Assembly: GCA_035700525.1 (NCBI GenBank)
Contig: DASSON010000080.1
Coordinates: 16,041 to 80,040, forward strand
DNA from: Burkholderiales bacterium
GTDB taxonomy: Bacteria; Pseudomonadota; Gammaproteobacteria; Burkholderiales; JBDZVW01
Length of the DNA stretch: 64,000 bases
Direction: 5' to 3'
Shown: positions 1-53,461 of the stretch, piece by piece
Numbering within the stretch: position 1 is the stretch's first letter
How the letters are laid out: each line of letters begins with the position of its first letter
The notes under the pieces: generated by a model
What the model was told of the DNA's origin: nothing
What the model saw: only the letters and a program-made list of their open reading frames with translations
Databases searched by the model: none
Position numbers and translations under genes: made by a program

Positions 1-462
1 GATTGCTTCCGGCGTCATGAAGCCGTGCATCCGCTTGTCGTTGAGCAGCACCACCGGTGCATCGCCGCAGGCGCCAAAACATTCGCCTTCTCTCAGCGTA
101 AAACGGCCGTCCGCCGAGGTTTCGTTGAAGCCGATGCCGAGCTTGTGCTGCAGATGATCGGCGGCACGGGTCGCGCCCGACAATGCGCACGGCAGATTGG
201 TACAGATCGTGAGCTTGTAGCGGCCGACCGGTTCGGTATCGTACATCGTGTAGAACGACGCCACTTCGTATACCCGGACCGGCGGTATGCCGAGATACTG
301 CGCGACGAAATCCATCGTCGCGGTCGACAGCCAGCCCTTTTCTTCCTGTGCGATCGTCAGTGCCGCCATCACCGCCGACTGTTTCTGGTCCGGCGGATAT
401 TTCGTGACCGCCTGGTCGATCCGCGCCAGCGCTTCCGGTGACAGCGCCATCGGTGCGTTCAT
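1..462 (-). CDS. nuoE: NADH-quinone oxidoreductase subunit E, N-terminal ~154 codons (3' end lies beyond the left window edge)
   Basis: Absent from the ORF track because it runs off the window. My reverse-complement translation from the ATG at 462-460 reads [46 protein letters not shown]...[13 protein letters not shown]...[13 protein letters not shown], the NuoE 2Fe-2S cysteine pattern. ATGA start/stop overlap with nuoD and position in nuoABCDE order. Confidence 0.85.
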
Positions 463-1700
463 CGGTCCACCTCGCCGAAAACGATGTCCTGCGTGCTGAT
501 GATCGCGACCACGTCAGCGATCATGTGCCCATGCACCATTTCGTCGAGTGACGCCAGATGCACGAATCCCGGCGCACGCAGCTTCAGCCGGTACGGCTTG
601 TTGGCGCCGTCCGAAATCAGGTAGACGCCGAATTCTCCCTTCGGCGCCTCGACCGCCGCGTAGGCCTCGCCTTCCGGCACGTGCATGCCTTCGGTGAAGA
701 GCTTGAAATGGTGAATCAGCTCTTCCATGTTCTGCTTCATCTTCATGCGCGACGGCGGCGTCACCTTGTGGTTGTCCACCATCACCGGTCCGCGATTGCT
801 GCGCAGCCAGTCGATGCATTGGCGCACGATGCGGTTGGCCTGGCGCATTTCCTCGATGCGCACCAGATAGCGGTCGTAGCAGTCGCCGTTGACGCCAACC
901 GGGATGTCGAATTCCATCCGGTCATAAACCTCGTACGGCTGCTTCTTGCGCAGATCCCATTCGACCCCCGAGCCGCGCAGCATCGGCCCGGTGAATCCGA
1001 GCGCCTTTGCGCGCTCCGGCGATACGACACCGATATCGACGGTGCGCTGCTTCCAGATGCGGTTGTCGGTCAGCAGCGTCTCGTAATCATCGACCAGCTT
1101 CGGAAAGCGCTGCGTGAAATCCTCGATGAAGTCGAGCAGTGATCCCTGGCGCGCGCTGTTCAGCTTGCGCAACGCGGCACGCGACGCGTCGTACTGCGGC
1201 ATGTGATCCGGCAGGTCGCGATAGACGCCGCCCGGGCGGTAATACGCGGCATGCAGTCGCGCGCCCGACACCGCCTCGTAACAGTCCATCAGGTCCTCAC
1301 GCTCGCGGAAGCAATACAGGAACACCGTCATCGCACCAATGTCGAGCGCATGCGCGCCCAGCCACAGCAGGTGATTCAGAATGCGCGTGATCTCGTCGAA
1401 CATGACGCGGATGTATTGCGCGCGGATCGGAATCTCGATCTGCAGCAGCTTCTCGATCGCCATCACGTACGCGTGCTCGTTGCACATCATCGACACGTAG
1501 TCGAGGCGGTCCATGTACGGCACCGACTGCAGGAAGGTCTTGTTCTCCGCCAGCTTCTCGGTCGCGCGGTGCAGCAGTCCGATATGCGGGTCGGCACGCT
1601 GGATCACTTCGCCATCCAGCTCCAGTACCAGCCGCAACACCCCGTGCGCCGCCGGATGCTGCGGCCCGAAGTTCATCGTGTAGTTGCGAATTTCAGCCAT
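459..1700 (-). CDS. nuoD: NADH-quinone oxidoreductase subunit D
   Basis: ORF 459..1754. Start trimmed to the ATG at 1700, giving [31 protein letters not shown], the canonical NuoD N-terminus. Full-length 49-kDa-subunit-like sequence. Confidence 0.95.
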
Positions 1701-3363: not shown

Positions 3364-3448
3364 TGGTGCCGACGGCGAGACTCGAACTCGCACGACTTTC
3401 GCCACCGCCCCCTCAAGACGGCGTGTCTACCAATTCCACCACGTCGGC
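3364..3448 (-). tRNA. tRNA-Leu, anticodon GAG
   Basis: Reverse complement reads GCCGACGTGGTGGAATTGGTAGACACGCCGTCTTGAGGGGGCGGTGGCGAAAGTCGTGCGAGTTCGAGTCTCGCCGTCGGCACCA. Hand-folded: acceptor GCCGACG/CGTCGGC, 3-bp D stem GTG/CAC, anticodon stem CCGTC/GGCGG with loop TTGAGGG, long variable arm, T arm GCGAG-TTCGAGT-CTCGC, encoded CCA. Confidence 0.85.
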
Positions 3449-3459
3449 GCCTGAATCCG

Positions 3460-3538
3460 GTGAGGAGTAAGGAGTAAGGTGTAAGGAGTAAAACCGCCCC
3501 GAAATCAACCCCTCACTCCTTACCCCTCACGCCTCACG
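3460..3538. repeat. Heptamer-armed palindromic element, copy 1 (short variant without the GC core)
   Basis: 3460-3487 = GTGAGGA GTAAGGA GTAAGGT GTAAGGA. 3511-3538 = CCTCACT CCTTACC CCTCACG CCTCACG. The arms pair block for block. It fills the spacer between the secG stop (3541) and the tRNA-Leu 5' end (3448). Confidence 0.85.
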
Positions 3539-3540
3539 CA

Positions 3541-3909
3541 TCATTTAGGTATTTCCTGTGTCTTGTCCCGCGGGGCCGATGACGGAGCCGGCGCCGGGGT
3601 CGGGGCCTTCGGCGCGACCGGGGCCGCCTGTTTCTGCGTGGCCGGCGCCATACCCGACATCACGCCTTGCGCGCTGCTCTGGTGCGACGCCAGATAGGTC
3701 AGCCCCATGCTGGTCAGAAAGAATACCGTCGCCAGAATGGCCGTCGCGCGGCTCAGAAAATTGGCGGAGCCGGTGGCTCCGAACATGCTGCCGGAAGCGC
3801 CGCCGCCGAACGCGGCGCCGACATCGGCGCCCTTGCCATGCTGCAGCAATACCAGTCCGACGACGGCTATCGCCACCAATACATGAACTACCAATAGCGC
3901 AATTTCCAT
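3541..3909 (-). CDS. secG: Preprotein translocase subunit SecG
   Basis: ORF 3541..3972 trimmed to the ATG at 3909: MEIALLVVHVLVAIAVVGLVLLQHGKGADVGAAFGGGASGSMFGATGSANFLSR, a SecG signature, followed by a Pro/Ala-rich tail. Confidence 0.85.
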   Translation of the reverse strand: MEIALLVVHVLVAIAVVGLVLLQHGKGADVGAAFGGGASGSMFGATGSANFLSRATAILATVFFLTSMGLTYLASHQSSAQGVMSGMAPATQKQAAPVAPKAPTPAPAPSSAPRDKTQEIPK

Positions 3910-3922
3910 CGTTCCGTTTCCG

Positions 3923-4702
3923 TCACGTTGCCGCGACTGCCTGCGGCGCACGGCAAATCGCAACAAATTCATTGACCGACAGCGACGCGCCGCCGATCAG
4001 CCCGCCATCAATGTCGGGCATCGCAAAAAGCTCGGCCGCATTGGCGGCCTTCACGCTGCCGCCGTAGAGCATCACCGTCCGCGCGGCCACGCCGGCATCC
4101 CGCTGCGCCAGCCGTTCACGGACGAACGCATGCACCGCCTGCGCCTGTTCCGGCCGCGCCGTTCTGCCGGTCCCGATCGCCCACACCGGTTCGTAGGCGA
4201 CGACGGAACGCGCGATTCCATCCATGCCGACCGCCGCCAGCGCGGCATCGAGCTGGCGCGCGACAACGGTGCGAGTCAGCTCCGCATCGCGCTCCGCCAG
4301 CGTTTCGCCGACGCACAAAATCGGCGTCAGCCCCGCGTCCAGCGCCGCCGCCAGCTTGCGCGCGACGACGACGTCGGTTTCACCGAACAGCCCGCGGCGC
4401 TCCGAATGCCCGACGATCACGTAAGTGCAGCCGGCATCGACCAGCATGCGCGCCGACACTTCACCGGTATAGGCGCCATTATCGAACTGACAGACATCCT
4501 GCGCGCCCCATGTGACCGGCGTGCCCTGCAGCAGTTCCTGCACCTGAAACAAGTATGGAAACGGCACGCACACCGCACATCGCGCGCCACCGTCACCACG
4601 CGACGCACCGCCCAGCGCGGACACGACGCCGTCGAGCAGCGCCCGGTTACCGGCGCGGTCCCCGTTCATCTTCCAGTTGCCCGCTACCAGCTTCTCGCGC
4701 AT
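3923..4702 (-). CDS. tpiA: Triose-phosphate isomerase
   Basis: ORF 3923..4759 trimmed to the ATG at 4702: MREKLVAGNWKMNG. Contains the AYEPVWAIGTG active-site motif. Confidence 0.9.
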   Translation of the reverse strand: MREKLVAGNWKMNGDRAGNRALLDGVVSALGGASRGDGGARCAVCVPFPYLFQVQELLQGTPVTWGAQDVCQFDNGAYTGEVSARMLVDAGCTYVIVGHSERRGLFGETDVVVARKLAAALDAGLTPILCVGETLAERDAELTRTVVARQLDAALAAVGMDGIARSVVAYEPVWAIGTGRTARPEQAQAVHAFVRERLAQRDAGVAARTVMLYGGSVKAANAAELFAMPDIDGGLIGGASLSVNEFVAICRAPQAVAAT

Positions 4703-15198: not shown

Positions 15199-16245
15199 AT
15201 GAACATTGTCTCATCAGGCACCCGCTTTCTCGCCGCCGCGGCGCTGACGCTCGGTGCCGCGGCCGGCGCCTGCGCTGCCGGCATCACCGGCGCCGGTGCC
15301 ACGTTTCCGTACCCGATCTACGCCAAATGGGCAAACACGTACCAGCAGCAGACCGGTATCGGACTCAATTATCAGTCGATCGGGTCCGGCGGCGGAATCC
15401 GGCAGATCAACGCCGGCACCGTGGACTTCGGCGCATCCGACATGCCGCTCAAGCCCGACGTTCTTGCACAGGACAAGCTGATGCAGTTTCCGACCGTGAT
15501 GGGCGGCGTCGTCCCGGTCGTCAATCTCGACGGCGTGAAGCCCGGCGACATCCGGCTGACCGGTGCGCTGCTGGCGGACATCTATCTCGGCAAAATCAAG
15601 AAGTGGAACGACGCAGCGCTCGCCCATCTCAACCCGAATGTGAAATTGCCCGACCAGGCCATCACCGTGGTGCATCGCTCCGACGGCTCGGGCACCACCT
15701 TCATCTTCACCAATTACCTCATCAAGGTCAGCCCGGAATGGAAAAGCAAGGTCGGCAACGACGTCTCGGTCAAATGGCCGGCTGGCGTCGGTGGCAAGGG
15801 CAATGAAGGCGTGGCTTCCTACGTGCAACGCATCAAGGGCGCCATTGGTTATGTGGAGTACGCCTACGCGCTGCAGAACAAGCTGACCTATGCCATGCTC
15901 AAGAATCGGGATGGCAGCTTCGTGAAGCCCGACGCCAAGAGTTTTCAGGCGGCGGCTGCCGGTGCTGACTGGAACAACGCACCCGGCATGTACATGATCC
16001 TCACCGATGAACCTGGCGCCGCCAGCTGGCCTATTACAGGCGCCACCTTCATCCTGATGCACAAGACCCAGGAAAAACCTGAAACCGCGCGGCAAGTGCT
16101 CAAATTCTTCGACTGGGCTTATGCCAATGGCGATCAGATGGCGGAACAACTGGATTACGTTCCGATGCCGGACAGTGTCGTCAAGCTGATCAAGTCCGAA
16201 TGGAAAGCGCAAATCAAGGACAACCGGGGTAAGCCCGTTCTGTAA
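15199..16245 (+). CDS. pstS: Phosphate ABC transporter substrate-binding protein
   Basis: 348 aa with a signal peptide, then [19 protein letters not shown]...[12 protein letters not shown], typical of PstS. AGGAG RBS. Confidence 0.95.
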
Positions 16246-36468: not shown

Positions 36469-37296
36469 TCATTCCTGTCCCTGCACCGCAGCCAGCACCA
36501 TCAGCGCGTCGCGCGTTGCGGCAACATCATGCACGCGCACGATGTGCGCGCCGTTCTGCACTGCAATCAGCATCGCCGCGATGCTGGCAGGGACGCGCTC
36601 ATTCACTGCACGGCCGGTGATCAGACCGAGCGCCGATTTGCGTGAAAGTCCCGCGACGATCGCCGCGCCCGCTGGTTCGAATTCGCGCAAGCGACGCAAT
36701 AAGGCCAGATTATGCGCCAGCGTTTTGCCGAAGCCGAAACCGGGGTCGATCGCCAGCCTCTCGCCGGCCATGCCCGCGGCGCGCGCCGCCGCCAGCCGTT
36801 CTTCCAGAAACGCCCTCACCTCCGCCACCACGTCGTCGTAATGCGGCGCATGCTGCATGGTTTTCGGATCGCCCTGCATGTGCATGAAACACACGCCGGC
36901 ATCGGTTGCCGCCACTGCGTCCAACGCGCCGGGTGCGCGCAATGCGTTGATGTCGTTGATCATCGCCGCGCCGGCGGCGATCGCTTCACGCATCAATTGC
37001 GGTTTCTGCGTATCGACCGACAGCGGCACCGGAACGTCGCGCAGCGCATCGAGGACCGGAAGAATGCGCCGCCGTTCTTCATCCAGCGGCACGATATCCG
37101 AGCCGGGCCGGGTTGATTCGCCGCCGAAATCGAGAATGTCCGCACCCTCGTCGATCAGCCGGTGCGCCTGCGCGATGGCAGCGTCCGCCGTCGCGAATCG
37201 TCCGCCGTCAGAAAAGGAATCGGGCGTGATGTTGACCACGCCCATGATCAGCGGACGGTCCAGGGACAGTCTGAACTTGCCGCACCGGAAAAACAT
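36469..37296 (-). CDS. folP: Dihydropteroate synthase
   Basis: 275 aa with the [16 protein letters not shown] motif 17 residues after the start, the same spacing as E. coli FolP. Confidence 0.9.
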
Positions 37297-37297
37297 G

Positions 37298-37402
37298 GTG
37301 AGGAGTAAGGTGTGAGGTGTGAGGAGTAAGGGGCTTGAAGTTTGCGGCGCGCTCGGCGCGCAGCGCTACCAACTCCTCACTCCTTACCCCTCACTCCTCA
37401 CG
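37298..37402. repeat. Heptamer-armed palindromic element, copy 2
   Basis: 37298-37332 = GTGAGGA GTAAGGT GTGAGGT GTGAGGA GTAAGGG. Core 37333-37374 contains AAGTTTGCGGCGCGCTCGGCGCGC. 37375-37402 = CCTCACT CCTTACC CCTCACT CCTCACG. Lies 1 nt from the folP ATG and 7 nt from the ftsH stop. Confidence 0.9.
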
Positions 37403-37409
37403 GGGAACT

Positions 37410-39296
37410 TCAGGTTTCCTGTGCCGGAGTCGTGGTGGCTGCCGCGGTCGGCGGCGGATCCTTCGGCGGCGGCGCAGTGGTGGCGAGTGGTTTCGGCGGT
37501 CGCGGCGGACGCCCTTCCATGATGTCGGTGATCTGGTCGGAATCGATGGTTTCCCATTCGAGCAGCGCTTTCGCCATGATCTCGACCTTGTCGCGGTTGT
37601 CCTCGATCAGCTTGCGCGCCAGGCTGTACTGTTCGTCGATGATGCGACGGATTTCAGAATCCGCCCTCTGCAGCGTCGATTCGGAGACATTCTTGTGCGT
37701 CGTGATCGAACGTCCGAGGAACACCTCGCCATCGTTGTCGCCGTAGACCATCGGCCCCATCGCCTCGCTCATGCCCCAGCGCATCACCATGTTGCGCGCC
37801 ATCTCGGTCGCACGCTCGAAATCGTTCGACGCGCCGGTGGTCATCTGCTTCATGAATATTTCTTCGGCGATGCGGCCGCCGAACAGCACCGAGATGTTCT
37901 GCAGAATATGCTCGCGATCCATGCTGTAGCGATCCTGCACCGGCAGCTGCATCGTCACGCCCAGCGCGCGTCCGCGCGGAATGATCGTCACCTTGTGCAC
38001 CGGGTCGGTTTTCGGCAGCAGCCGCGCGGTCACCGCGTGGCCGGATTCGTGATAGGCGGTATTGCGGCGCTCTTCCTCGGGCATCACGATCGAGCGGCGC
38101 TCGGCGCCCATGATGATCTTGTCCTTCGCGCGCTCGAAGTCGTCCATGTCGACCAGGCGCTTGTTGGCGCGGGCCGCGAACAATGCCGCCTCGTTCACCA
38201 GGTTCGCCAGATCGGCGCCCGAAAAACCCGGGGTGCCGCGCGCCAGGATATCGGCGCGCACGTCGGGGCCCATCGGCACCTTGCGCATGTGCACGATCAG
38301 GATCTGCTCGCGCCCGCGGATATCGGGCAGCGGCACCACCACCTGGCGGTCGAAACGGCCCGGCCGCAGCAGCGCCGGATCGAGCACGTCGGGGCGGTTG
38401 GTGGCGGCGATCACGATCACGCCGGACGTGCCTTCGAAGCCGTCCATCTCGACCAGCAACTGGTTCAGCGTCTGCTCGCGCTCGTCGTTGCCGCCGCCGA
38501 GACCGGCGCCGCGCTGGCGGCCGACGGCGTCGATTTCGTCGATGAACACGATGCACGGCGCGTGCTTCTTCGCCTGCTCGAACATGTCGCGCACGCGCGC
38601 GGCACCGACGCCGACGAACATTTCGACGAAGTCGGAACCGGAAATGCTGAAGAACGGCACCTTCGCCTCGCCGGCAATCGCACGCGCCAGCAACGTCTTG
38701 CCGGTGCCCGGATTACCGACCATCAACACGCCGCGCGGAATGCGCCCGCCCAGCTTCTGGAACTTCCCGGGATCGCGCAGAAACTCGACCAGCTCGGAAA
38801 CTTCCTCTTTCGCCTCCTCGCAGCCCGCGACGTCGGCGAACGTGACCGTGTTGTTCGATTCGTCCAGCATGCGCGCGCGGCTCTTGCCGAACGAGAACGC
38901 CCCGCCGCGGCCGCCGCCCTGCATCTGGCGCATGAAGAATATCCAGACGCCGATCAGCAGCAGCATCGGGAACCACGACACGAAGATGTTCATCAGCAGC
39001 GACGGCTCGTGCTCCGGCTTGGCGTCGATCGTGACGCCGCTCTTCAGCAGGTCAGACACCAGCCATGGATCGGACGGCGAATACACGCTGAAGTGCTCGC
39101 CATTGGTCTTGATGCCCTTCAGCACGTGGCCTTCGATCGTCACCTTGCTGATCTGGCCCTGCTTCACGGCGTCCAGAAACTGCGAATACTCCATTTGTTT
39201 CTGGACCGTATGCTGCGAACTGAACTGGTTGAACACCGTCATCAGCACCAGCGCAATGACCAGCCAGATCGCTACATTTTTAATCAGATTGTTCAA
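37410..39296 (-). CDS. ftsH: ATP-dependent zinc metalloprotease FtsH
   Basis: 628 aa. Walker [18 protein letters not shown] region, zinc site HESGHAV. Confidence 0.97.
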
Positions 39297-44820: not shown

Positions 44821-44926
44821 TATTTTTTAACCGCCAAGCCGCCGAGGACGTCGACATAAAACACAGCACAATATGGACAAACAACACGAATCTTCCGGTC
44901 GACAACACCGGTATTCATCTGTAGTT

Positions 44927-46102
44927 TCAAACAGACGTTCCCGCGTGGCGCCCCTGGCGGCTTGGCGGTTCGCTTTTGTGCTTTTCCATGAGCGTCACAA
45001 ACCGATCAAACAAATAATCGACATCATGCGGCCCCGGGCTCGCTTCCGGATGCCCCTGAAAGCAGAACGCCGGCCGGTCGGTAAACGCAAAACCCTGCAG
45101 GCTGCCGTCGAACAGCGAAACATGCGTGACGCGGCAGTTGGCCGGCAGCGTCGCCGCGTCGACGGCGAAGCCGTGGTTCTGGCTGGTGATCACGACACGG
45201 CCGCTGTCGAGATCGTGCACCGGATGATTCGCGCCGTGGTGCCCGAACTTCATTTTTACCGTCTTCGCGCCGCTCGCCAGCGCCATGAACTGATGGCCGA
45301 GGCAGACACCGAACAGTGGCAGCCTGGTCGCCAGGATTTCCTTCACGGTCGCAATGGCGTAATCGCACGGCTGCGGATCGCCCGGCCCGTTCGACAGGAA
45401 GATGCCGTCAGGCTCGAGCGCCAGCGCCTGCTGCGCGGTGGCCTGCGCCGGCAGCACGGTCACGCGGCAGCCGCGCGACGCCAGTTTTCTGAGGATCGTG
45501 TGCTTGGTTCCGAAATCGTAGGCGACGACGTGAAAGTCCGTCCGCTCCCGCGGCCGGTAGCCATGCTCCAGCGCCCACACGCCCTGATCCCAAGTGTAGG
45601 ATTCGCAGCAGCTCACCACCTTTGCGAGATCCATGCCGTCGAGCCCCGGGAATGCACGTGCCGCGGCCAGCGCCTCCTGCTCGTCGATGCGGCCAGCCAT
45701 GACGGCACCGCGCTGCGCGCCCTTTTCGCGCAGGATGCGCGTCAGCTTGCGGGTGTCGATATCGGCAATCGCGACCACCGCATGCTGCTTCAGATAATCG
45801 GCGAGCGTGTGGGTCTTGCGCCAACTGCTGGCAAGCAGTGGCAGGTCGCGAATCACCAGCCCTGCCGCCAGCACTTCCCGCGCCTCGACATCCTCGGCAT
45901 TGACGCCGGTATTGCCGATGTGCGGATAGGTCAGCGTGATGATCTGGCGGCAGTACGAAGGGTCGGTGAGAATTTCCTGGTAACCGGTCATCGCAGTGTT
46001 GAATACCACCTCTCCTGCGGTGAGCCCTTCGGCTCCGACTGCCGCGCCGCGAAAAATCGTGCCATCCTCAAGCACGAGAATGGCAGGCGGACATTGCGGC
46101 AA
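44927..46102 (-). CDS. carA: Carbamoyl-phosphate synthase small subunit
   Basis: 391 aa with the glutamine amidotransferase triad context GVCLGHQ. The C-terminal ~15 aa ([15 protein letters not shown]) look like an extension. Confidence 0.95.
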
Positions 46103-47956: not shown

Positions 47957-48388
47957 GTGACTTATACCTCCGAACTGAAGAATATCGGCCTCAAGGCGAC
48001 GCTGCCACGGCTGCGTATTCTGGAGCTGTTCGAAAAGAGCGAAGAACGGCATCTGGGCGCCGAAGACGTCTACAAACTGTTGCTCAAGGAAGGCACCGAT
48101 ACCGGACTGGCAACCGTGTATCGCGTGCTGACCCAGTTTGAACAGGCGGGTCTGCTGGTGCGCCACCATTTCGAAGGCGGCCGGGCGGTATTCGAACTCA
48201 ATCGCGGCGATCATCATGATCACCTGGTTTGCCTGCAATGCGGCCACGTCGAAGAGTTTTTTGACGAAACCATCGAAAAGCAGCAAACCACGATCGCGAA
48301 AGATCGCGGCTTTACCATCCACGATCATTCACTCTATCTTTACGCCGATTGCACCAAGGTGAACTGTCCGTTTCGGCACCAGGGATAG
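47957..48388 (+). CDS. fur: Ferric uptake regulator
   Basis: 143 aa with a GTG start. RLRILELF...[15 protein letters not shown] (wHTH), [11 protein letters not shown], and a C-terminal CxxxxC. Confidence 0.9.
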
Positions 48389-48391
48389 GGC

Positions 48392-48488
48392 GTGAGGAGT
48401 GAGGCGTCAGGGGTGAGGGGTGAATAATGCGGCGCGCCAGGCGCGCCGGAAACGTCGACTCCTCACTCCTCACCCCTCACTCCTAACA
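48392..48488. repeat. Heptamer-armed palindromic element, copy 3
   Basis: 48392-48426 = GTGAGGA GTGAGGC GTCAGGG GTGAGGG GTGAATA. Core ATGCGGCGCGCCAGGCGCGCCGGAAACGTCGACT. 48461-48488 = CCTCACT CCTCACC CCTCACT CCTAACA. Starts 3 nt after the fur stop and overlaps the recN 3' end. Confidence 0.9.
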
Positions 48489-50130
48489 TCTCGGCCGCAT
48501 GCCGCCGCGTCGTCGCGGTGATCTTCACGCCACCCAGCATGCGCGCGATTTCCTCGACGCGGGCGTCGCGGCCAAGGGGGGATACGTGGCTGGTGACCTT
48601 GTCCTTGCCGGCATGCTTCACCACCTGCCATTGCGCATCACCGGCGGCGGCGACCTGCGGCAGATGAGTCACGCACATGACCTGGTGATTGCGGCCGAGC
48701 GTCTTCAGCATGCGGCCGACAATTTCGGCAACGCGCCCGCCAATGCCGGCATCGACTTCATCGAAAATCAGTGTCGGCACCTGCGCGACCGAGCTGGTCA
48801 CGGTCTGAATCGCAAGCGAAATGCGTGACAACTCGCCGCCGGAAGCGACGCGGCCGAGCGGACGCAGTTCCGCGCCGGCATGCGTGGCGATCAGAAATTC
48901 GATCCGTTCCAGCCCGTGCGCATTGCCTTCATCGAGCGCATCGAGCACGATTTCGAAACGGCTGCCCCCCAGCGCCAGCCGCTGCATCAGTTCGCTCACG
49001 TCGCGCGCCAGACGGCGCGCGGCTTTCGCCCGTCCCGCGCTCAGTCGGCGCGCACGCTCCAGGTAGCGCGTGTGCGCTTCCTGTTCACGCTGCCGCAGCG
49101 CCTCGAGGTCGCTGCCGGCATCCAGTGCCGCAACGCGCCCGCGCGCTTCATCGAGCAGTGCCGGCAGCGCCTCCGGCTGCACGCGATACTTGCGCGCGGC
49201 CGAATGCAATGCGTCGATGCGACTTTCCACCGTCCGCAGCCGCCGCGGGTCGAGCTCCAGACGTTCACAATAGTGACGCAATGCATAGACCGCTTCCTGC
49301 GCCTGTGCCTGCACCGGGTCAAGGATCGCGATGATGTCACCGAGACTGGTGTCGTAATCCTGCAGATGACGCAGCCGCGACACGACGGCATTGATCTGTG
49401 CCAGCACCGACTGTTCGCTTTCGGAAAGCGCATCCGACGCAAACTGCGCGCCTTCGAGCAGGCTCGCGGCATGGGCCAGGCGCTGGTGTTCCGCGGCCGT
49501 TTCTTCCCATTCACCGGGCGCCGGCGCCAGCGCCTCGAGTTCACGCAGCTGCCAGTCCAGCCGTTCGCGCTCGGCCTCGAGCGCCCGCGCGTCATGTTCG
49601 ACGGCGGCACGCTGCGCCCGTGCTTCCTGCCACGCGCGATGGCCCTGCGCCACGTCAAGGCCGTACTGATGCAGTCCGGCATAACGGTCCAGCAGTTCGC
49701 GCTGCACCGCCGGGCGCAACAGCGACTGGTGCTGATGCTGACCATGGATGTCGACCAGGAATTCCCCGGCTTCGCGCAACTGCTGCACCGTACAGGGCCG
49801 GCCGTTGATGAAGCTGCGCGAACGTCCGCCGGCGTCGATCACGCGCCGCATCAGACAGCCGCCCTCATCGATTGCCAGCGTATTGTCGGCCAGCCAGCGA
49901 CCGACCGCACTGTCCGCGGCAACATCGAATGCTGCGCTGACGTCGGCACGCTCCGCGCCGGCGCGCACCACGCCGGCATCCCCACGCCCCCCAAGCGCCA
50001 GCGCCAGCGCATCGATCAGGATCGACTTGCCGGCGCCGGTTTCACCGGTCAGCACCGTGAATCCCGCATCGAATTCGATGTCGAGGTGTTCGACGACGAC
50101 AAAATTATGGACGCTCAGGCTGCGCAACAT
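48463..50130 (-). CDS. recN: DNA repair protein RecN
   Basis: 555 aa: MLRSLSVHNFVVVEHLDIEFDAGFTVLTGETGAGKSI (Walker A), a long coiled coil and a C-terminal SMC-like ATPase half. Confidence 0.93.
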   Translation of the reverse strand: MLRSLSVHNFVVVEHLDIEFDAGFTVLTGETGAGKSILIDALALALGGRGDAGVVRAGAERADVSAAFDVAADSAVGRWLADNTLAIDEGGCLMRRVIDAGGRSRSFINGRPCTVQQLREAGEFLVDIHGQHQHQSLLRPAVQRELLDRYAGLHQYGLDVAQGHRAWQEARAQRAAVEHDARALEAERERLDWQLRELEALAPAPGEWEETAAEHQRLAHAASLLEGAQFASDALSESEQSVLAQINAVVSRLRHLQDYDTSLGDIIAILDPVQAQAQEAVYALRHYCERLELDPRRLRTVESRIDALHSAARKYRVQPEALPALLDEARGRVAALDAGSDLEALRQREQEAHTRYLERARRLSAGRAKAARRLARDVSELMQRLALGGSRFEIVLDALDEGNAHGLERIEFLIATHAGAELRPLGRVASGGELSRISLAIQTVTSSVAQVPTLIFDEVDAGIGGRVAEIVGRMLKTLGRNHQVMCVTHLPQVAAAGDAQWQVVKHAGKDKVTSHVSPLGRDARVEEIARMLGGVKITATTRRHAAEMLGVRGEE

Positions 50131-50139
50131 TGAAAGTGC

Positions 50140-50229
50140 GTGAGGAGTGAGGAGTCAGGTGTGAGGCGTTAAAGTTTCCGGCGCGCTCGGCGCGCCGCAT
50201 TTTCTACTCCTCACTCCTCACACCTCACG
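50140..50229. repeat. Heptamer-armed palindromic element, copy 4
   Basis: 50140-50174 = GTGAGGA GTGAGGA GTCAGGT GTGAGGC GTTAAAG. Core TTTCCGGCGCGCTCGGCGCGCCGCATTTTCTACT. 50209-50229 = CCTCACT CCTCACA CCTCACG. Lies 9 nt from the recN ATG (50130) and 3 nt from the nadK stop (50233). Confidence 0.9.
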
Positions 50230-50232
50230 TTT

Positions 50233-51105
50233 TTAAAGAAACTCGCTCCAGTGCAGTTTTCCGCGCAGCATATTGTAGTAGCTGTGCCCCACCGGATGCA
50301 GCAGCCGCACCATGTGATCGTAGCGCCGCACCATCACGCGATCGCCTTCGCGCAGGTCGAAGTGGGAGTGACTGTCGCAGTGCGCGCGCGCATCGGCGGC
50401 GTCCTTGATCACGATCTCGACCAGCGAATCACCGCTGATCACGATCGGGCGGTTACTGAGCGTATGCGGGCACACCGGCACCAGCGCCAGCATCGACAGC
50501 GACGGATGCACGATCGGGCCGCCGGCGGACAGCGCATAGGCGGTCGAGCCGGTAGGCGACGCCACGATCAGTCCATCGGAGCGCTGGGTGTAGATGAATT
50601 CGCCGTCGATGCGCATGTCGAATTCGATCATGCTGCCTTTCACGCCCTTGCTCACGACCACGTCATTGAACGCCAGTACGCTGAACACGCTGGACTCGCC
50701 GCTGAACACTTCGACCGACAGCAGCATGCGGTCCTCGGTCATGTAGTGCCCGTCGAGAATCGCGCCCAGCGTCTCGAACATCGTGCCGATCGAAATGTCG
50801 GTCAGAAAACCGAGGCGGCCCTGATTGACCCCGACCAGCGCGACATCGAATGGCGCGAAAGTGCGTGCGATGTTGAGCATCGTGCCGTCGCCGCCCAGCA
50901 CCACCGCCAGATCGGCGCGCCGCCCCATCTCCTCCAGCGTCAGCGCGGGATAGGAATGGGCGCTCGCATGCGCACCGGACAGCCGGTCGAGCAGCACGTC
51001 GACACCGCGGCCTTCGAGAAATCGCGCGAGTTCGAGCAACGGCCCGATGATTTCCGGACTTTTGTACTTGCCGATCAGCCCGACGCATGAGAATGACGGT
51101 TTCAT
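50233..51105 (-). CDS. nadK: NAD kinase
   Basis: 290 aa with the GGDGT motif (VVLGGDGTMLN) and the PpnK-like C-terminal domain. Confidence 0.9.
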   Translation of the reverse strand: MKPSFSCVGLIGKYKSPEIIGPLLELARFLEGRGVDVLLDRLSGAHASAHSYPALTLEEMGRRADLAVVLGGDGTMLNIARTFAPFDVALVGVNQGRLGFLTDISIGTMFETLGAILDGHYMTEDRMLLSVEVFSGESSVFSVLAFNDVVVSKGVKGSMIEFDMRIDGEFIYTQRSDGLIVASPTGSTAYALSAGGPIVHPSLSMLALVPVCPHTLSNRPIVISGDSLVEIVIKDAADARAHCDSHSHFDLREGDRVMVRRYDHMVRLLHPVGHSYYNMLRGKLHWSEFL

Positions 51106-51236
51106 GGCGGCATTAAACCATAATTCGCCGCGCCACGGCAGCGTGAAATCCGCAGATAATGAAATGGTTACTTCGCGTGACCGCGAACCTTGTGACGCCC
51201 ATTTCGGTATGTGTAGAATACCCGTCGAGATCCGCC

Positions 51237-52265
51237 ATGAATCTGATACTCAGCGAACGCGCCCAACTCCTGCTCAAAACACTCGTCGAACGCTATATTG
51301 CGGAAGGCCAGCCGGTCGGGTCGCGCACGCTTTCACGCTACTCCGGACTGGATCTGAGTCCCGCCAGCATCCGCAACGTGATGGCGGACCTCGAGGAGCT
51401 GGGGTTCATCGTCAGCCCGCATACTTCGGCCGGACGCATTCCGACCGCACGCGGCTATCGCTTCTTCGTCGATACCCTGCTCACCATCCAGCAGCTCGGC
51501 ACCATCGAAATCAGCCAGCTCGGCGGCCAGCTGCAGGCGGAGAACACACACCGGCTGGTGTCGTCGGCATCGCAACTGTTGTCCGACCTGACGCGCTTCG
51601 CCGGCGTCGTCGTCACCCCGCGCCGCAGTCCGGCGTTCCGCCACATCGAGTTTCTCGGCCTGTCGGAAAAGCGCATCCTGCTGATCATCGTCACGCCCGA
51701 CGGCGACGTGCAGAATCGCATCCTCGTGACCGAAAACACCTATTCGCCGGCGATGCTGGTGGAGGCCGGCAACATTCTGAATCAGAATTATGCCGGACTG
51801 TCGTTCGACGAAATCCGCCGGCGCATTCAGCAGGAGCTGAAGGAGCTGCGCGAAAACATGACGCGTCTGATGACTGCCGCGCTCGAGGCCGGCAGCCAGG
51901 CCGCCGACGAATCGTCCGAAAACTACGTGATCTCGGGCGAAAGCAATCTGCTGGAAGTGCAGGATCTGTCATCGAACATGGCCAGCCTGCGCCAGTTGTT
52001 CGACCTGTTCGAGAAAAAGACCGGCCTGCTGCAACTGCTCGACAGCAGTTCGCGCGCGCAGGGCGTGCAGATCTTCATCGGCGAGGAATCCGGGCTGGCG
52101 CCGCTCGACGAGTGCAGCGTGGTGACCGCCTCCTACGAGGTGGACGGCCAGGTCGTCGGCACGGTGGGCGTCATCGGACCCACGCGCATGGCTTACGAAC
52201 GCGTCATTCCGATCGTCGATATTACCGCGAAGCTGATGTCGAGCGCGCTGTCGCAGCACCCGTAG
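51237..52265 (+). CDS. hrcA: Heat-inducible transcription repressor HrcA
   Basis: ORF 51159..52265 trimmed to the ATG at 51237: [33 protein letters not shown]. Divergent from nadK. Confidence 0.9.
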
Positions 52266-52268
52266 CGA

Positions 52269-52358
52269 GTGAGGCGTGAGGTGTCAGGAGTGAATAACGC
52301 GGCGCGCCATACGCGCCGGAAACTTGAACTCCTCACTCCTTACCCCTCACGCCCCACG
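52269..52358. repeat. Heptamer-armed palindromic element, copy 5
   Basis: 52269-52296 = GTGAGGC GTGAGGT GTCAGGA GTGAATA. Core ACGCGGCGCGCCATACGCGCCGGAAACTTGAACT. 52331-52358 = CCTCACT CCTTACC CCTCACG CCCCACG. Starts 3 nt after the hrcA stop and ends 2-8 nt before the hemH start. Confidence 0.9.
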
Positions 52359-52366
52359 CCTTGCTA

Positions 52367-53461
52367 ATGTCCGTTTTCCGCGCCTCTCCCCCGTATCATC
52401 ACGGCACGCCGGCAAAAACCGGCGTGCTGCTGGTCAATCTGGGCACGCCGGAAGCACCGACGGCGCAAGCGGTCAAGCCGTACCTGCGCGAATTTCTGAG
52501 CGATCCGGCGGTGGTGGAACTGCCGCGCCTGATCTGGCAGCCGCTGCTGCATCTGTTCGTACTCACCACGCGGCCGCGCCGTACTGCGGAAAAATACGCC
52601 GAAATCTGGATGGCCGACGGCTCGCCGCTCAAGGTCCATACCGAGCGCCAGACGAAACTGCTGCGCGGCTATCTCGGCGAGCGTATCCGGACACCGCTGG
52701 CGGTTGAGTACGCGATGCGTTACGGCATGCCGGCGATCGGAGAAAAACTCGACGCGCTGATCGCGCACGGCTGCGACCGCATCCTGATCGTGCCGCTTTA
52801 TCCGCAGTACGCGGCAAGCACCGTAGGCAGCACGTGCACGGCCGTGTTCCGCCACGCCGCCACACTGCGCAGGATGCCGGCGCTGCGCACGATCACGCAT
52901 TTTCACGACCATCCGGGTTACATCGCGGCACTCGCGCAGAGCGTGCGCGAGCACTGGTCGCGCAACGGCCGGCCCGACCTGCTGCTGATGAGCTTTCATG
53001 GCGTGCCGCGCTACACACTGACCAAGGGCGATCCGTATCATTGTGAATGCCAGAAAACGGCGCGCCTGCTGGCACGTGAGCTGAATCTGCCCGAACATGC
53101 GTACCGGGTATGCTTCCAGTCCCGTTTCGGTCGCACCGAATGGCTCAAGCCGTACACGTCGGCCACGCTGGTCCAGCTCGGGCGCGAACAAACCGGACGG
53201 GTCGACGTGATCTGCCCCGGCTTCGTATCGGATTGCCTGGAGACGCTGGAAGAAATCGCGATCACCAACAAGGCGGCATTCCTCAACGCCGGGGGCGGCG
53301 AATTTCATTTCATTCCGTGCCTGAATCAGCGCGATGACTGGATGCGCGCGCTATCCGACATCGTGTTCGACAACCTGCTGGGCTGGCCCGCGGGCACGCC
53401 CGACGCCACCGAGGCGGAAACGGCGCGCCGGCGCGCGCTGGAAATGGGCGCCCAGGATTAG
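52367..53461 (+). CDS. hemH: Ferrochelatase
   Basis: ORF 52361..53461 (TTG at 52361, first ATG at 52367). [10 protein letters not shown]...YLREFLSDP...PLYPQY..ST, typical of HemH. Confidence 0.9.

Follow-up and report, generated by a model that had tools for sequence, protein, structure and literature searches.

Known heptamer arrays and rRNA intervening sequences

An excess of heptamers in bacterial intergenic DNA was first noted by Mrazek in 2007 (as cited in PMC4692102) and has been on record since then without an explanation. The closest described systems are found in Xanthomonas, where Rehm et al. (2015) reported about 185 (GGGAATC)n arrays per genome, and in Nostoc, which has convergent heptamer arrays of GGGGA(T/C)T units (PMC4692102). 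In 70-75 cases two Xanthomonas arrays lie close together in convergent orientation, preferentially between open reading frames (ORFs) that are aligned. On the sense strand, the G-rich array overlaps a stop codon or comes within 50 bp of it; on the antisense strand it precedes ORFs by no more than 50 bp (PMC4692102). The Xanthomonas arrays are transcribed and were published without an assigned function, and G-quadruplex (G4) formation has been shown for GGGAATC repeats (PMC4692102). Here we describe a heptamer-armed palindromic repeat of about 90 bases, of which direct reading found exactly five copies in 64 kb of DNA from an uncultured Burkholderiales lineage (positions 16,041 to 80,040 of contig DASSON010000080.1; hereafter the window), and which adds constraints to the question of the heptamer excess.

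The intervening sequences (IVS) of 23S rRNA are selfish insertions bounded by a stem of about 28 bp, which RNase III cuts mid-stem; they exist with and without an ORF for the S23p protein (PF05635, a four-helix bundle) and have a sporadic distribution that looks horizontally transferred (Coxiella IVS, PMC4990558). In Beggiatoaceae, cyanobacteria and Bacteroidetes, MacGregor (2015) described TAACTGA direct repeats in intergenic arrays of 2-6 units, most of which end about 1 nt before the start codons of genes without a Shine-Dalgarno (SD) sequence, and which are distributed across phyla without a known transfer mechanism (PMC4679880). We consider it about an even chance that the five window elements are ORF-less, IVS-like selfish hairpin insertions that operon spacers tolerate and whose stem RNase III probably cleaves.

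Five copies of one heptamer-armed palindrome

The plan of the element is (GTRAGGN)3-5, a core and (CCTYACN)3-4, with a total length of 80-105 nt (Table 1). In all five copies the arms are heptamer arrays, 21-35 nt long. In copy A, between ftsH and folP, the G-rich array (37298-37332) reads GTGAGGA GTAAGGT GTGAGGT GTGAGGA GTAAGGG and the C-rich array (37375-37402) reads CCTCACT CCTTACC CCTCACT CCTCACG, while the core (37333-37374) includes the palindrome GCGGCGCGC-TCG-GCGCGC. We queried the window for three consecutive GTRAGGN units, allowing up to 2 mismatches, and obtained 24 matches, all within the five loci, compared with none in 100 shuffles. A two-unit pattern gave 29 matches against a shuffle mean of 0.5. 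The five elements are also the strongest intergenic inverted repeats found in the window.

Four copies (A, C, D and E) have in common an asymmetric, non-repetitive core of 40 nt with an 8-bp GC mini-hairpin, which in these copies and their orthologs reads AATGCGGCGCGCC-NNN-GGCGCGCCGGAAACTTCAAC. A covariance model trained on the four core-bearing copies and six orthologs from relatives identified exactly five copies in the window (E-values 1e-12 to 1e-27), the next-best match scoring 15 bits. The core-bearing copies scored 90-113 bits on one strand and 45-80 bits on the other, and the favoured strand was sense to the upstream gene in 4/4 cases. Because four of the five share a non-repetitive, asymmetric core, the elements are homologous members of a dispersed family, copies of one lineage-specific repeat and not independent slippage products. 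Together with their retention at orthologous sites (see below), the unique core indicates inherited elements rather than locally generated ones. An earlier note on this DNA, made from the sequence, had counted five palindromes of tandem heptamers, and direct reading, pattern search and covariance model all agree with it. Its description of a dispersed palindromic family with varying heptamer number is likewise borne out by the shared core and the differences in unit count. That all copies follow the same plan is true of the arms in 5/5, but not of the GC core, which is absent from copy B, where only the arms are present.

The note had not recognised the architecture, but convergent G-rich heptamer arrays were already published for Xanthomonas and Nostoc (PMC4692102). 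Thus, the inverted heptamer architecture is known, and what is new here is the GTRAGGN sequence family in this lineage. Like the pairs of Rehm et al., the window copies have 7-nt tandem units in varying number (about four being typical of those pairs) and convergent G-rich arrays between co-directional or convergent ORFs, with the G array by the stop and the C array by the start. Unlike GGGAATC, the GTRAGGN unit has GG only and no G-tract of three or more, so that it is not a credible G4 former and G4 formation was judged unlikely. The window copies further differ from those of Xanthomonas and Nostoc in their host lineage, and they are a true sequence family by virtue of a conserved non-repetitive core that includes a GC mini-hairpin.

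With the 23S rRNA IVS (PMC4990558) the window copies share terminal inverted repeats that form a stem of at least about 25 bp (31-39 pairs in the window). Unlike the IVS, they are located in mRNA or tRNA spacers and none lies in an rRNA helix, Rfam having found no rRNA in the window; unlike the PF05635-bearing forms they carry no ORF, and their cleavage by RNase III is proposed by analogy. The elements also resemble REP, BIME and REPIN sequences, which are extragenic palindromes between co-directional or convergent genes, often near stops. REP elements are known to make upstream mRNA more stable, to attenuate transcription and to influence how translation terminates. They are 20-40 nt long with a GTAG/CGTC head and no tandem substructure, unlike the 80-105 nt window elements with their arms of heptamer arrays. 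As the note had held, the defining features of REP/BIME, ERIC, BOX, RUP and Correia elements do not fit, and no Rfam family matched the elements at either gathering or permissive thresholds. In the window the tRNA alone passed, and the best match of an element, to mir-1224, reached 33 bits against a gathering score of 105. A literature search by element sequence returned primers only. MITEs (miniature inverted-repeat transposable elements) are similarly short, non-coding and multi-copy, with terminal inverted repeats and an internal sequence that varies between lineages. Unlike in MITEs, the inverted repeats here are themselves tandem arrays of variable length, and no parent insertion sequence was seen in the 64 kb. 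We found no direct repeat indicative of a target-site duplication at the borders of the five copies, and no RAYT turned up among the subset of ORFs scanned in the 64 kb.

Fit to the spacers and folding

Every copy fills its spacer, leaving 1-11 nt to the flanking genes, and the upstream stop codons lie 2-7 nt from the arms. Four copies are located between co-directional genes, one between convergent and none between divergent genes. Direct reading reproduced the distances given for copy A in the note, 7 nt to the ftsH stop on one side and 1 nt to the folP ATG on the other. The C-rich arm was also said to end 1-9 nt before folP, recN and hemH, and we measured 1, 9 and 8 nt, respectively, taking the ATG of recN (copy D) and the ATG at 52367, not the TTG at 52361, as the start of hemH (copy E). 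The margins of 1-11 nt agree with the further statement that spacers are filled almost exactly, with the correction that copy C overlaps the 3' end of recN. There, the arm at 48463-48487 encodes the last five RecN codons (VRGEE) and the TGA stop. An arm can supply this terminus because the GTGAGGA unit contains GGAG as well as a stop codon, and with three units every frame has a stop. The end of RecN in the relative L212 (RMKDEG, then stop) comes from a GGATGAA-type array. Such arms are relevant to annotation, since they provide stop codons and C-terminal residues (of RecN here and of CarA in relatives).

The five elements fold at -48 to -67 kcal/mol (z -5.7 to -6.9). The stems contain 31-39 pairs per copy at -47 to -65 kcal/mol, about 25-29 bp of them in the arms, and their mismatches are single and recur at roughly every seventh position. 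The upstream stop and the downstream start are located at the base of the stem.

S23p genes framed by heptamer arrays

In L212, a close relative, (GGGACTC)5 and (GAGTCCC)5 flank 367 nt between carA and carB, and this segment encodes an intact PF05635 23S rRNA-intervening sequence protein (E-value 5e-31). The same carA-S23p-carB cassette with inverted heptamer arrays is present in a second close relative, L270, while in Xanthomonas L269 a PF05635 gene between carA and carB has (GGGACCG)4 and (CGGTCCC)4 as its arms. The G arm of the cassette encodes the C-terminus of CarA in the relatives. Rudanella L019 (Bacteroidota) has an S23p gene between (GTGAGGA)4 and a degenerate C arm; this locus and L212 contained the only two PF05635-like ORFs among the loci collected before PF05635-directed searches. 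We also sampled ten plasmid S23p genes by tblastn, picked irrespective of heptamers, of which nine are independent (L260 and L262 are orthologous). Complementary heptamer arrays, purine- or G-rich upstream and C-rich downstream, were found at 5/9 of these loci; two had direct arrays on both sides and two had no arrays. Several of the plasmid S23p genes sit inside cas operons (cas10-cmr3; cas6-cas4), and the cas6-cas4 insertion has the direct arrays (AAAGCTA)15 and (AAAGCCA)10.

The JGI pipeline gives many S23p homologs the name "carbamoyl-phosphate synthase large subunit", apparently in error and because they sit between carA and carB. That so many homologs are misnamed in this way shows the carA-S23p-carB layout to be widespread. 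In the window, the carA-carB spacer has a different, non-heptamer inverted repeat at the site of the relatives' S23p cassette. In the literature that could be searched, we found no paper that connects S23p genes with heptamer arrays, and to that extent the link has not been reported before. The presence of the same arms around S23p genes connects heptamer repeats with a class of selfish insertions that RNase III is known from experiment to neutralise, and it makes the long-standing heptamer question directly testable.

Period and arm polarity across phyla

Scanning one genome per species for the C-arm motif yielded at least 120 loci in many phyla. Among the matches listed, period-7 arrays occur at 34.6 per 100 kb compared with 3.3 for period-8 arrays, and 79 period-7 arrays are built of other heptamers, from which it follows that heptamer-rich genomes tend to host several families. 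The cross-phylum GTGAGGA elements have the same arms as the window family, but not its core. Longest-ORF calls of flanking-gene orientation at these loci, which misclassified known window cases (high-GC DNA), were dropped.

The G-richer arm is the 5' one in 56 of the 59 inverted pairs of any heptamer among the matches listed. Two pairs show the opposite polarity; one of them, 389 nt long, is probably made up of two neighbouring elements. The G-rich arm is also 5' in all inverted pairs from IMG/VR viral contigs (24/24) and in all window copies (5/5). A palindrome of this kind reads G-rich, then C-rich whichever strand is taken, so that transcripts always run into the G-rich arm first. The rule holds across phyla, heptamer sequences and viral contigs and is thus a constraint on any answer to the heptamer question. 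Filtering at the RNA level is one possible cause: a C-rich unpaired leader might expose a Rho-loading site, and G-rich sequence by the start might mask it. Alternatively, the polarity is possibly a product of how the arrays are generated. Stop codons in all frames, although true of GTGAGGA, were rejected as a general cause, since GGGACTC, GGGAATC and GGGACCG arms have no stops and keep the polarity.

In Stigonema L116 (6817-6932 and 7286-7442), the 5' arm is made of GGGGAAT and the 3' arm of ACTCCCT (complement AGGGAGT). These are not the same heptamer, so arms can diverge while keeping the G-rich one first. Low-GC IMG/VR contigs (L254 and L226, also L222, L246, L252 and L253) contain (GTGAGGA)3, about 130 nt of AT-rich sequence and (TCCTCAC)3. 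In two viral contigs a pair of such elements flanks a gene for a DUF5906/VapE-like primase-helicase of 741-745 aa, and the other ORFs had no PHROG match.

Retention and turnover in relatives

Relatives with 94, 92, 89 and 86% FolP identity have copy A at the orthologous ftsH-folP site, while relatives at about 70% have ordinary ftsH-folP spacers of 51-80 nt without heptamers. The comparison of orthologous spacers suggested in the note thus gives filled sites at 86-94% FolP identity and empty ones at about 70%. Pairwise identity of the copy A element is 0.77-0.86, compared with 0.66-0.81 at folP third codon positions, and by this measure the element diverges no faster than those positions. The orthologs differ by one 7-nt indel in the C arm; the window copy has one extra 7-nt unit. 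In the L130 lineage the core is gone from the ftsH-folP site, and a shorter hairpin is still formed. Copy A recurs unchanged on six metagenome contigs, which come from six samples, and is thus not a hypervariable contingency repeat. Of the other core-bearing copies, the one at hrcA-hemH is common to the window and L212, the one at fur/recN to the window and L214 and the one at nadK-recN to the window and L213.

The nadK-recN spacer of L212 (90% RecN identity) holds an unrelated element, with TGAAGGA units and a different core, which implies turnover at this site. In distant betaproteobacteria the same spacer contains equivalent palindromes of GTGAACR, GTGAAAM, GGTGATG or GGATGAA units. These span the distance from stop to start, mostly with margins of at most 10 nt (the 3' margin is longer in L149). 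Such recurrence suggests that the nadK-recN spacer may be a hotspot for heptamer palindromes. Our RecN scan of metagenomes returned relatives at 64% identity or less, which served as controls, had no orthologous copies and brought other heptamer families to light. The GTRAGGN unit is absent from 623 kb of recN neighbourhoods of more distant betaproteobacteria. Some of the distant betaproteobacteria have at least two heptamer palindromes within a few kb. Downstream of recN in L132 (5660-5800), GGTGATG-containing units with a period of about 13 nt face CATCACC-containing units.

Interpretation of the elements

The reading of the elements as ORF-less, IVS-like insertions builds on several observations: family homology, vertical retention, gain and loss of 7-nt units, confinement to presumably transcribed spacers, polarity, stop codons supplied by the arms, and the association of heptamer arrays with S23p. 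Under this reading, insertions would persist only in spacers that are transcribed and untranslated, namely operon junctions and gene 3' ends. The RNA would fold into an imperfect stem of about 30 bp with the insert looped out, so that the stop of the upstream gene and the start of the downstream one meet at its base. RNase III may then cut the long stem, as it does in 23S rRNA intervening sequences. Such cleavage would separate the cistrons, and the upstream mRNA would keep a protective 3' stem; the downstream start codon would be either freed or coupled to upstream translation.

A broader and more tentative proposal, which we think may well be wrong as a whole, is that heptamer palindromes are the gene-less, MITE-like forms of an unrecognised mobile cassette that carries an S23p/Avd-like PF05635 gene between its arrays. 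The rRNA IVS, the S23p genes of carAB and cas operons, the Xanthomonas GGGAATC arrays and the GTRAGGN family would then be one phenomenon. If this were true, the insertions would target transcribed DNA, and a stem of their own, cleavable by RNase III, would neutralise them in the RNA; the polarity would go back either to array formation (e.g. by 3'-end repeat addition on both strands) or to RNA-level selection.

Several points weigh against interpreting the elements as IVS-like insertions acting through their RNA. Processing by RNase III is carried over to them purely by analogy. The 64-kb window contains no PF05635-like ORF and lacks the carA-carB cassette, and the core of the window family has no similarity to S23p cassettes, so that descent from such cassettes is unproven. 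Overall, sense and antisense folds are equally stable (23 vs 21 G-U pairs in the minimum free energy folds), and compensatory double substitutions were found at 0/27 pairs of the family alignment. The bias in core orientation comes from four independent sites, too few to claim significance, and conservation above the third-position rate could stem from gene conversion among copies instead of selection. GTGAGGA was the motif that seeded the cross-phylum sample, and many sequences are contigs of metagenome-assembled genomes.

A purely selfish or neutral DNA repeat of the MITE or REP kind, spreading at the DNA level without any effect on RNA and found where insertion does no harm, is the alternative that survives best; we regard it as possible without being probable. 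It overlaps with the interpretation as IVS-like insertions rather than excluding it. A dispersed family with a shared core is what such a repeat would leave, and the same can be said of the turnover implied by the unrelated nadK-recN element of L212, of similar arms in many phyla and viral contigs, and of the lack of compensatory changes. However, the element diverges no faster than third codon positions in relatives at 86-94% identity, and both the 56:2 polarity and the way the elements fit flush against stop and start speak for filtering at the RNA or translation level. In addition, no target-site duplications were seen at the five copies, and no transposase turned up among the subset of window ORFs scanned.

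The note had itself proposed that the SD-like G arm pairs with the anti-SD-like C arm and masks or replaces the SD sequence of the downstream gene. Arms with AGGAG/GGAG and CUCCU fit this idea, as do variant units elsewhere (GTTAGGA, GATAGGA) that retain AGGAG. Each unit also has a stop codon and a GTG 6 nt after the preceding GGAG, and the C arm ends 1-9 nt ahead of three start codons. Yet an SD core of at least 4 nt within 25 nt upstream was found at 10/36 window gene starts, an approximate figure since the first start codon of each ORF was taken without curation, and this suggests low SD usage in this organism. With 26/36 window genes lacking an SD sequence, its absence before folP, recN and hemH is the norm here, and we rejected the view that the element causes the SD scarcity. 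In relatives that have no copy of the element, folP and recN are likewise not preceded by an SD sequence, and equivalent elements in the nadK-recN spacer use non-SD heptamers, so pairing of SD with anti-SD sequence is not supported as an organising principle. Moreover, two of the five copies precede no start codon (copy B precedes a tRNA, copy C lies between convergent stops), and the Xanthomonas GGGAATC/GGGACCG family is not SD-like. We therefore consider this model improbable. TAACTGA arrays end shortly before SD-less genes; in the window, three SD-less starts follow the end of the C arm at 1, 8 and 9 nt, SD absence being common there. Unlike the window arrays, TAACTGA arrays are direct, use another unit and have the stop-containing strand in sense orientation upstream of genes.

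That the elements are transcription terminators or attenuators, bidirectional at convergent genes, is very unlikely. The hairpins are very stable, copy C lies between convergent genes, and the family core generally bears a U-rich tail on the antisense side. In copy D, the GC mini-hairpin with CATTTTCTAC at 50179-50197 is terminator-like, on the + strand only, which is antisense to nadK and recN. This antisense tail could be the reason why only the sense core orientation persists inside operons. On the sense strand, though, no U-tract follows the stem in any of the five copies, and four copies are in apparent operons, where a new promoter would not fit before folP, recN or hemH. A sense-strand terminator function was rejected on the lack of a U-tract, only the core of copy D having been flagged, on the antisense strand.

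Both strands fold equally well, which leaves room for a DNA-level palindrome. One-sided changes in the family alignment, read on the sense strand, are of the G-U type in about 12 cases and of the A-C type in 4, a weak trend on the side of RNA-level selection, and copy B folds at -46.6 kcal/mol in sense compared with -30.3 kcal/mol in antisense. A G4, a cruciform or arrays of DNA-binding-protein sites are the least likely of the alternatives: despite the G4 published for GGGAATC repeats (PMC4692102) and three heptamers making 21 bp, or two helical turns, the GG runs of GTRAGGN would at best form a weak two-tetrad G4 against a hairpin of -50 to -65 kcal/mol, GTGAAAC and TCAGGAG families cannot form G4 and have the same polarity, and the published orientation rules follow gene direction (PMC4692102), which favours action at the transcript level.

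Feature coordinates and collection searches

Table 1. Elements, neighbouring genes and comparison loci. Positions refer to the window unless another locus is named.
Feature	Position	Strand	Remarks
Copy A, ftsH-folP spacer	37298..37402	-	Consensus core orientation sense to ftsH and folP; 99 bits (-), 66 (+)
Copy B, secG-tRNA-Leu spacer	3460..3538	-	Arms only; 58 vs 54.5 bits
Copy C, between convergent fur and recN	48392..48488	+	Core sense to fur; 113 bits (+), 80 (-)
Copy D, nadK-recN spacer	50140..50229	-	Core sense to both genes; 104 bits (-), 78 (+)
Copy E, hrcA-hemH spacer	52269..52358	+	Core sense to both genes; 99 bits (+), 66 (-)
ftsH	37410..39296	-	Upstream of copy A; Pfam
folP	36469..37296	-	Downstream of copy A; Pfam
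recN	48463..50130	-	Between copy D (5' side) and copy C (3' side); Pfam
nadK	50233..51105	-	Upstream of copy D; Pfam
fur	47957..48388	+	Stop 3 nt before copy C; Pfam
hrcA	51159..52265	+	Stop 3 nt before copy E; Pfam
hemH	52367..53461	+	Start placed at ATG by comparison with L212 ortholog; Pfam
secG	3541..3972	-	Stop 2-3 nt before copy B; Pfam
tRNA-Leu(GAG)	3364..3448	-	11 nt after copy B; ARAGORN, Rfam
Inverted repeat, carA end / carA-carB spacer	44829-44850 and 44949-44970		22 nt, 86% complementary, AACCGCCAAGCCGCC...
PF05635 cassettes, carA-carB	L212 7923-8366; L270 55-560; L269 1150-1620
Plasmid S23p loci	L259-L268, about positions 290-870		Cyanobacterial, Azospirillum and Gemmatirosa plasmids
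Lineage-specific heptamer palindromes, distant betaproteobacteria	L132 3872-3997; L136 3889-3995, 1766-1862; L137 3897-3995		GTGAACR, GTGAAAM, GGATGAA, GGTGATG, GTRAGCG (units of these loci and of the further loci below)
Lineage-specific heptamer palindromes, further loci, distant betaproteobacteria	L149 about 3870-3960; L138 340-422, 1311-1402
Viral element pairs	L254 7782-7929 and 10597-10744; L226 8105-8268 and 10956-11120

An annotated phage collection gave no match to the element. In an annotated plasmid collection, the only matches were direct (GGGGTGA)n arrays on Xanthomonas plasmids. One of these, on pXap47 of Xanthomonas phaseoli (L217, 1468-1545), comprises about 10 direct GGGGTGA units; it has an avrBs3 TALE gene on one side and a hypothetical gene on the other and adjoins a separate inverted repeat of about 45 nt at 1330-1440.

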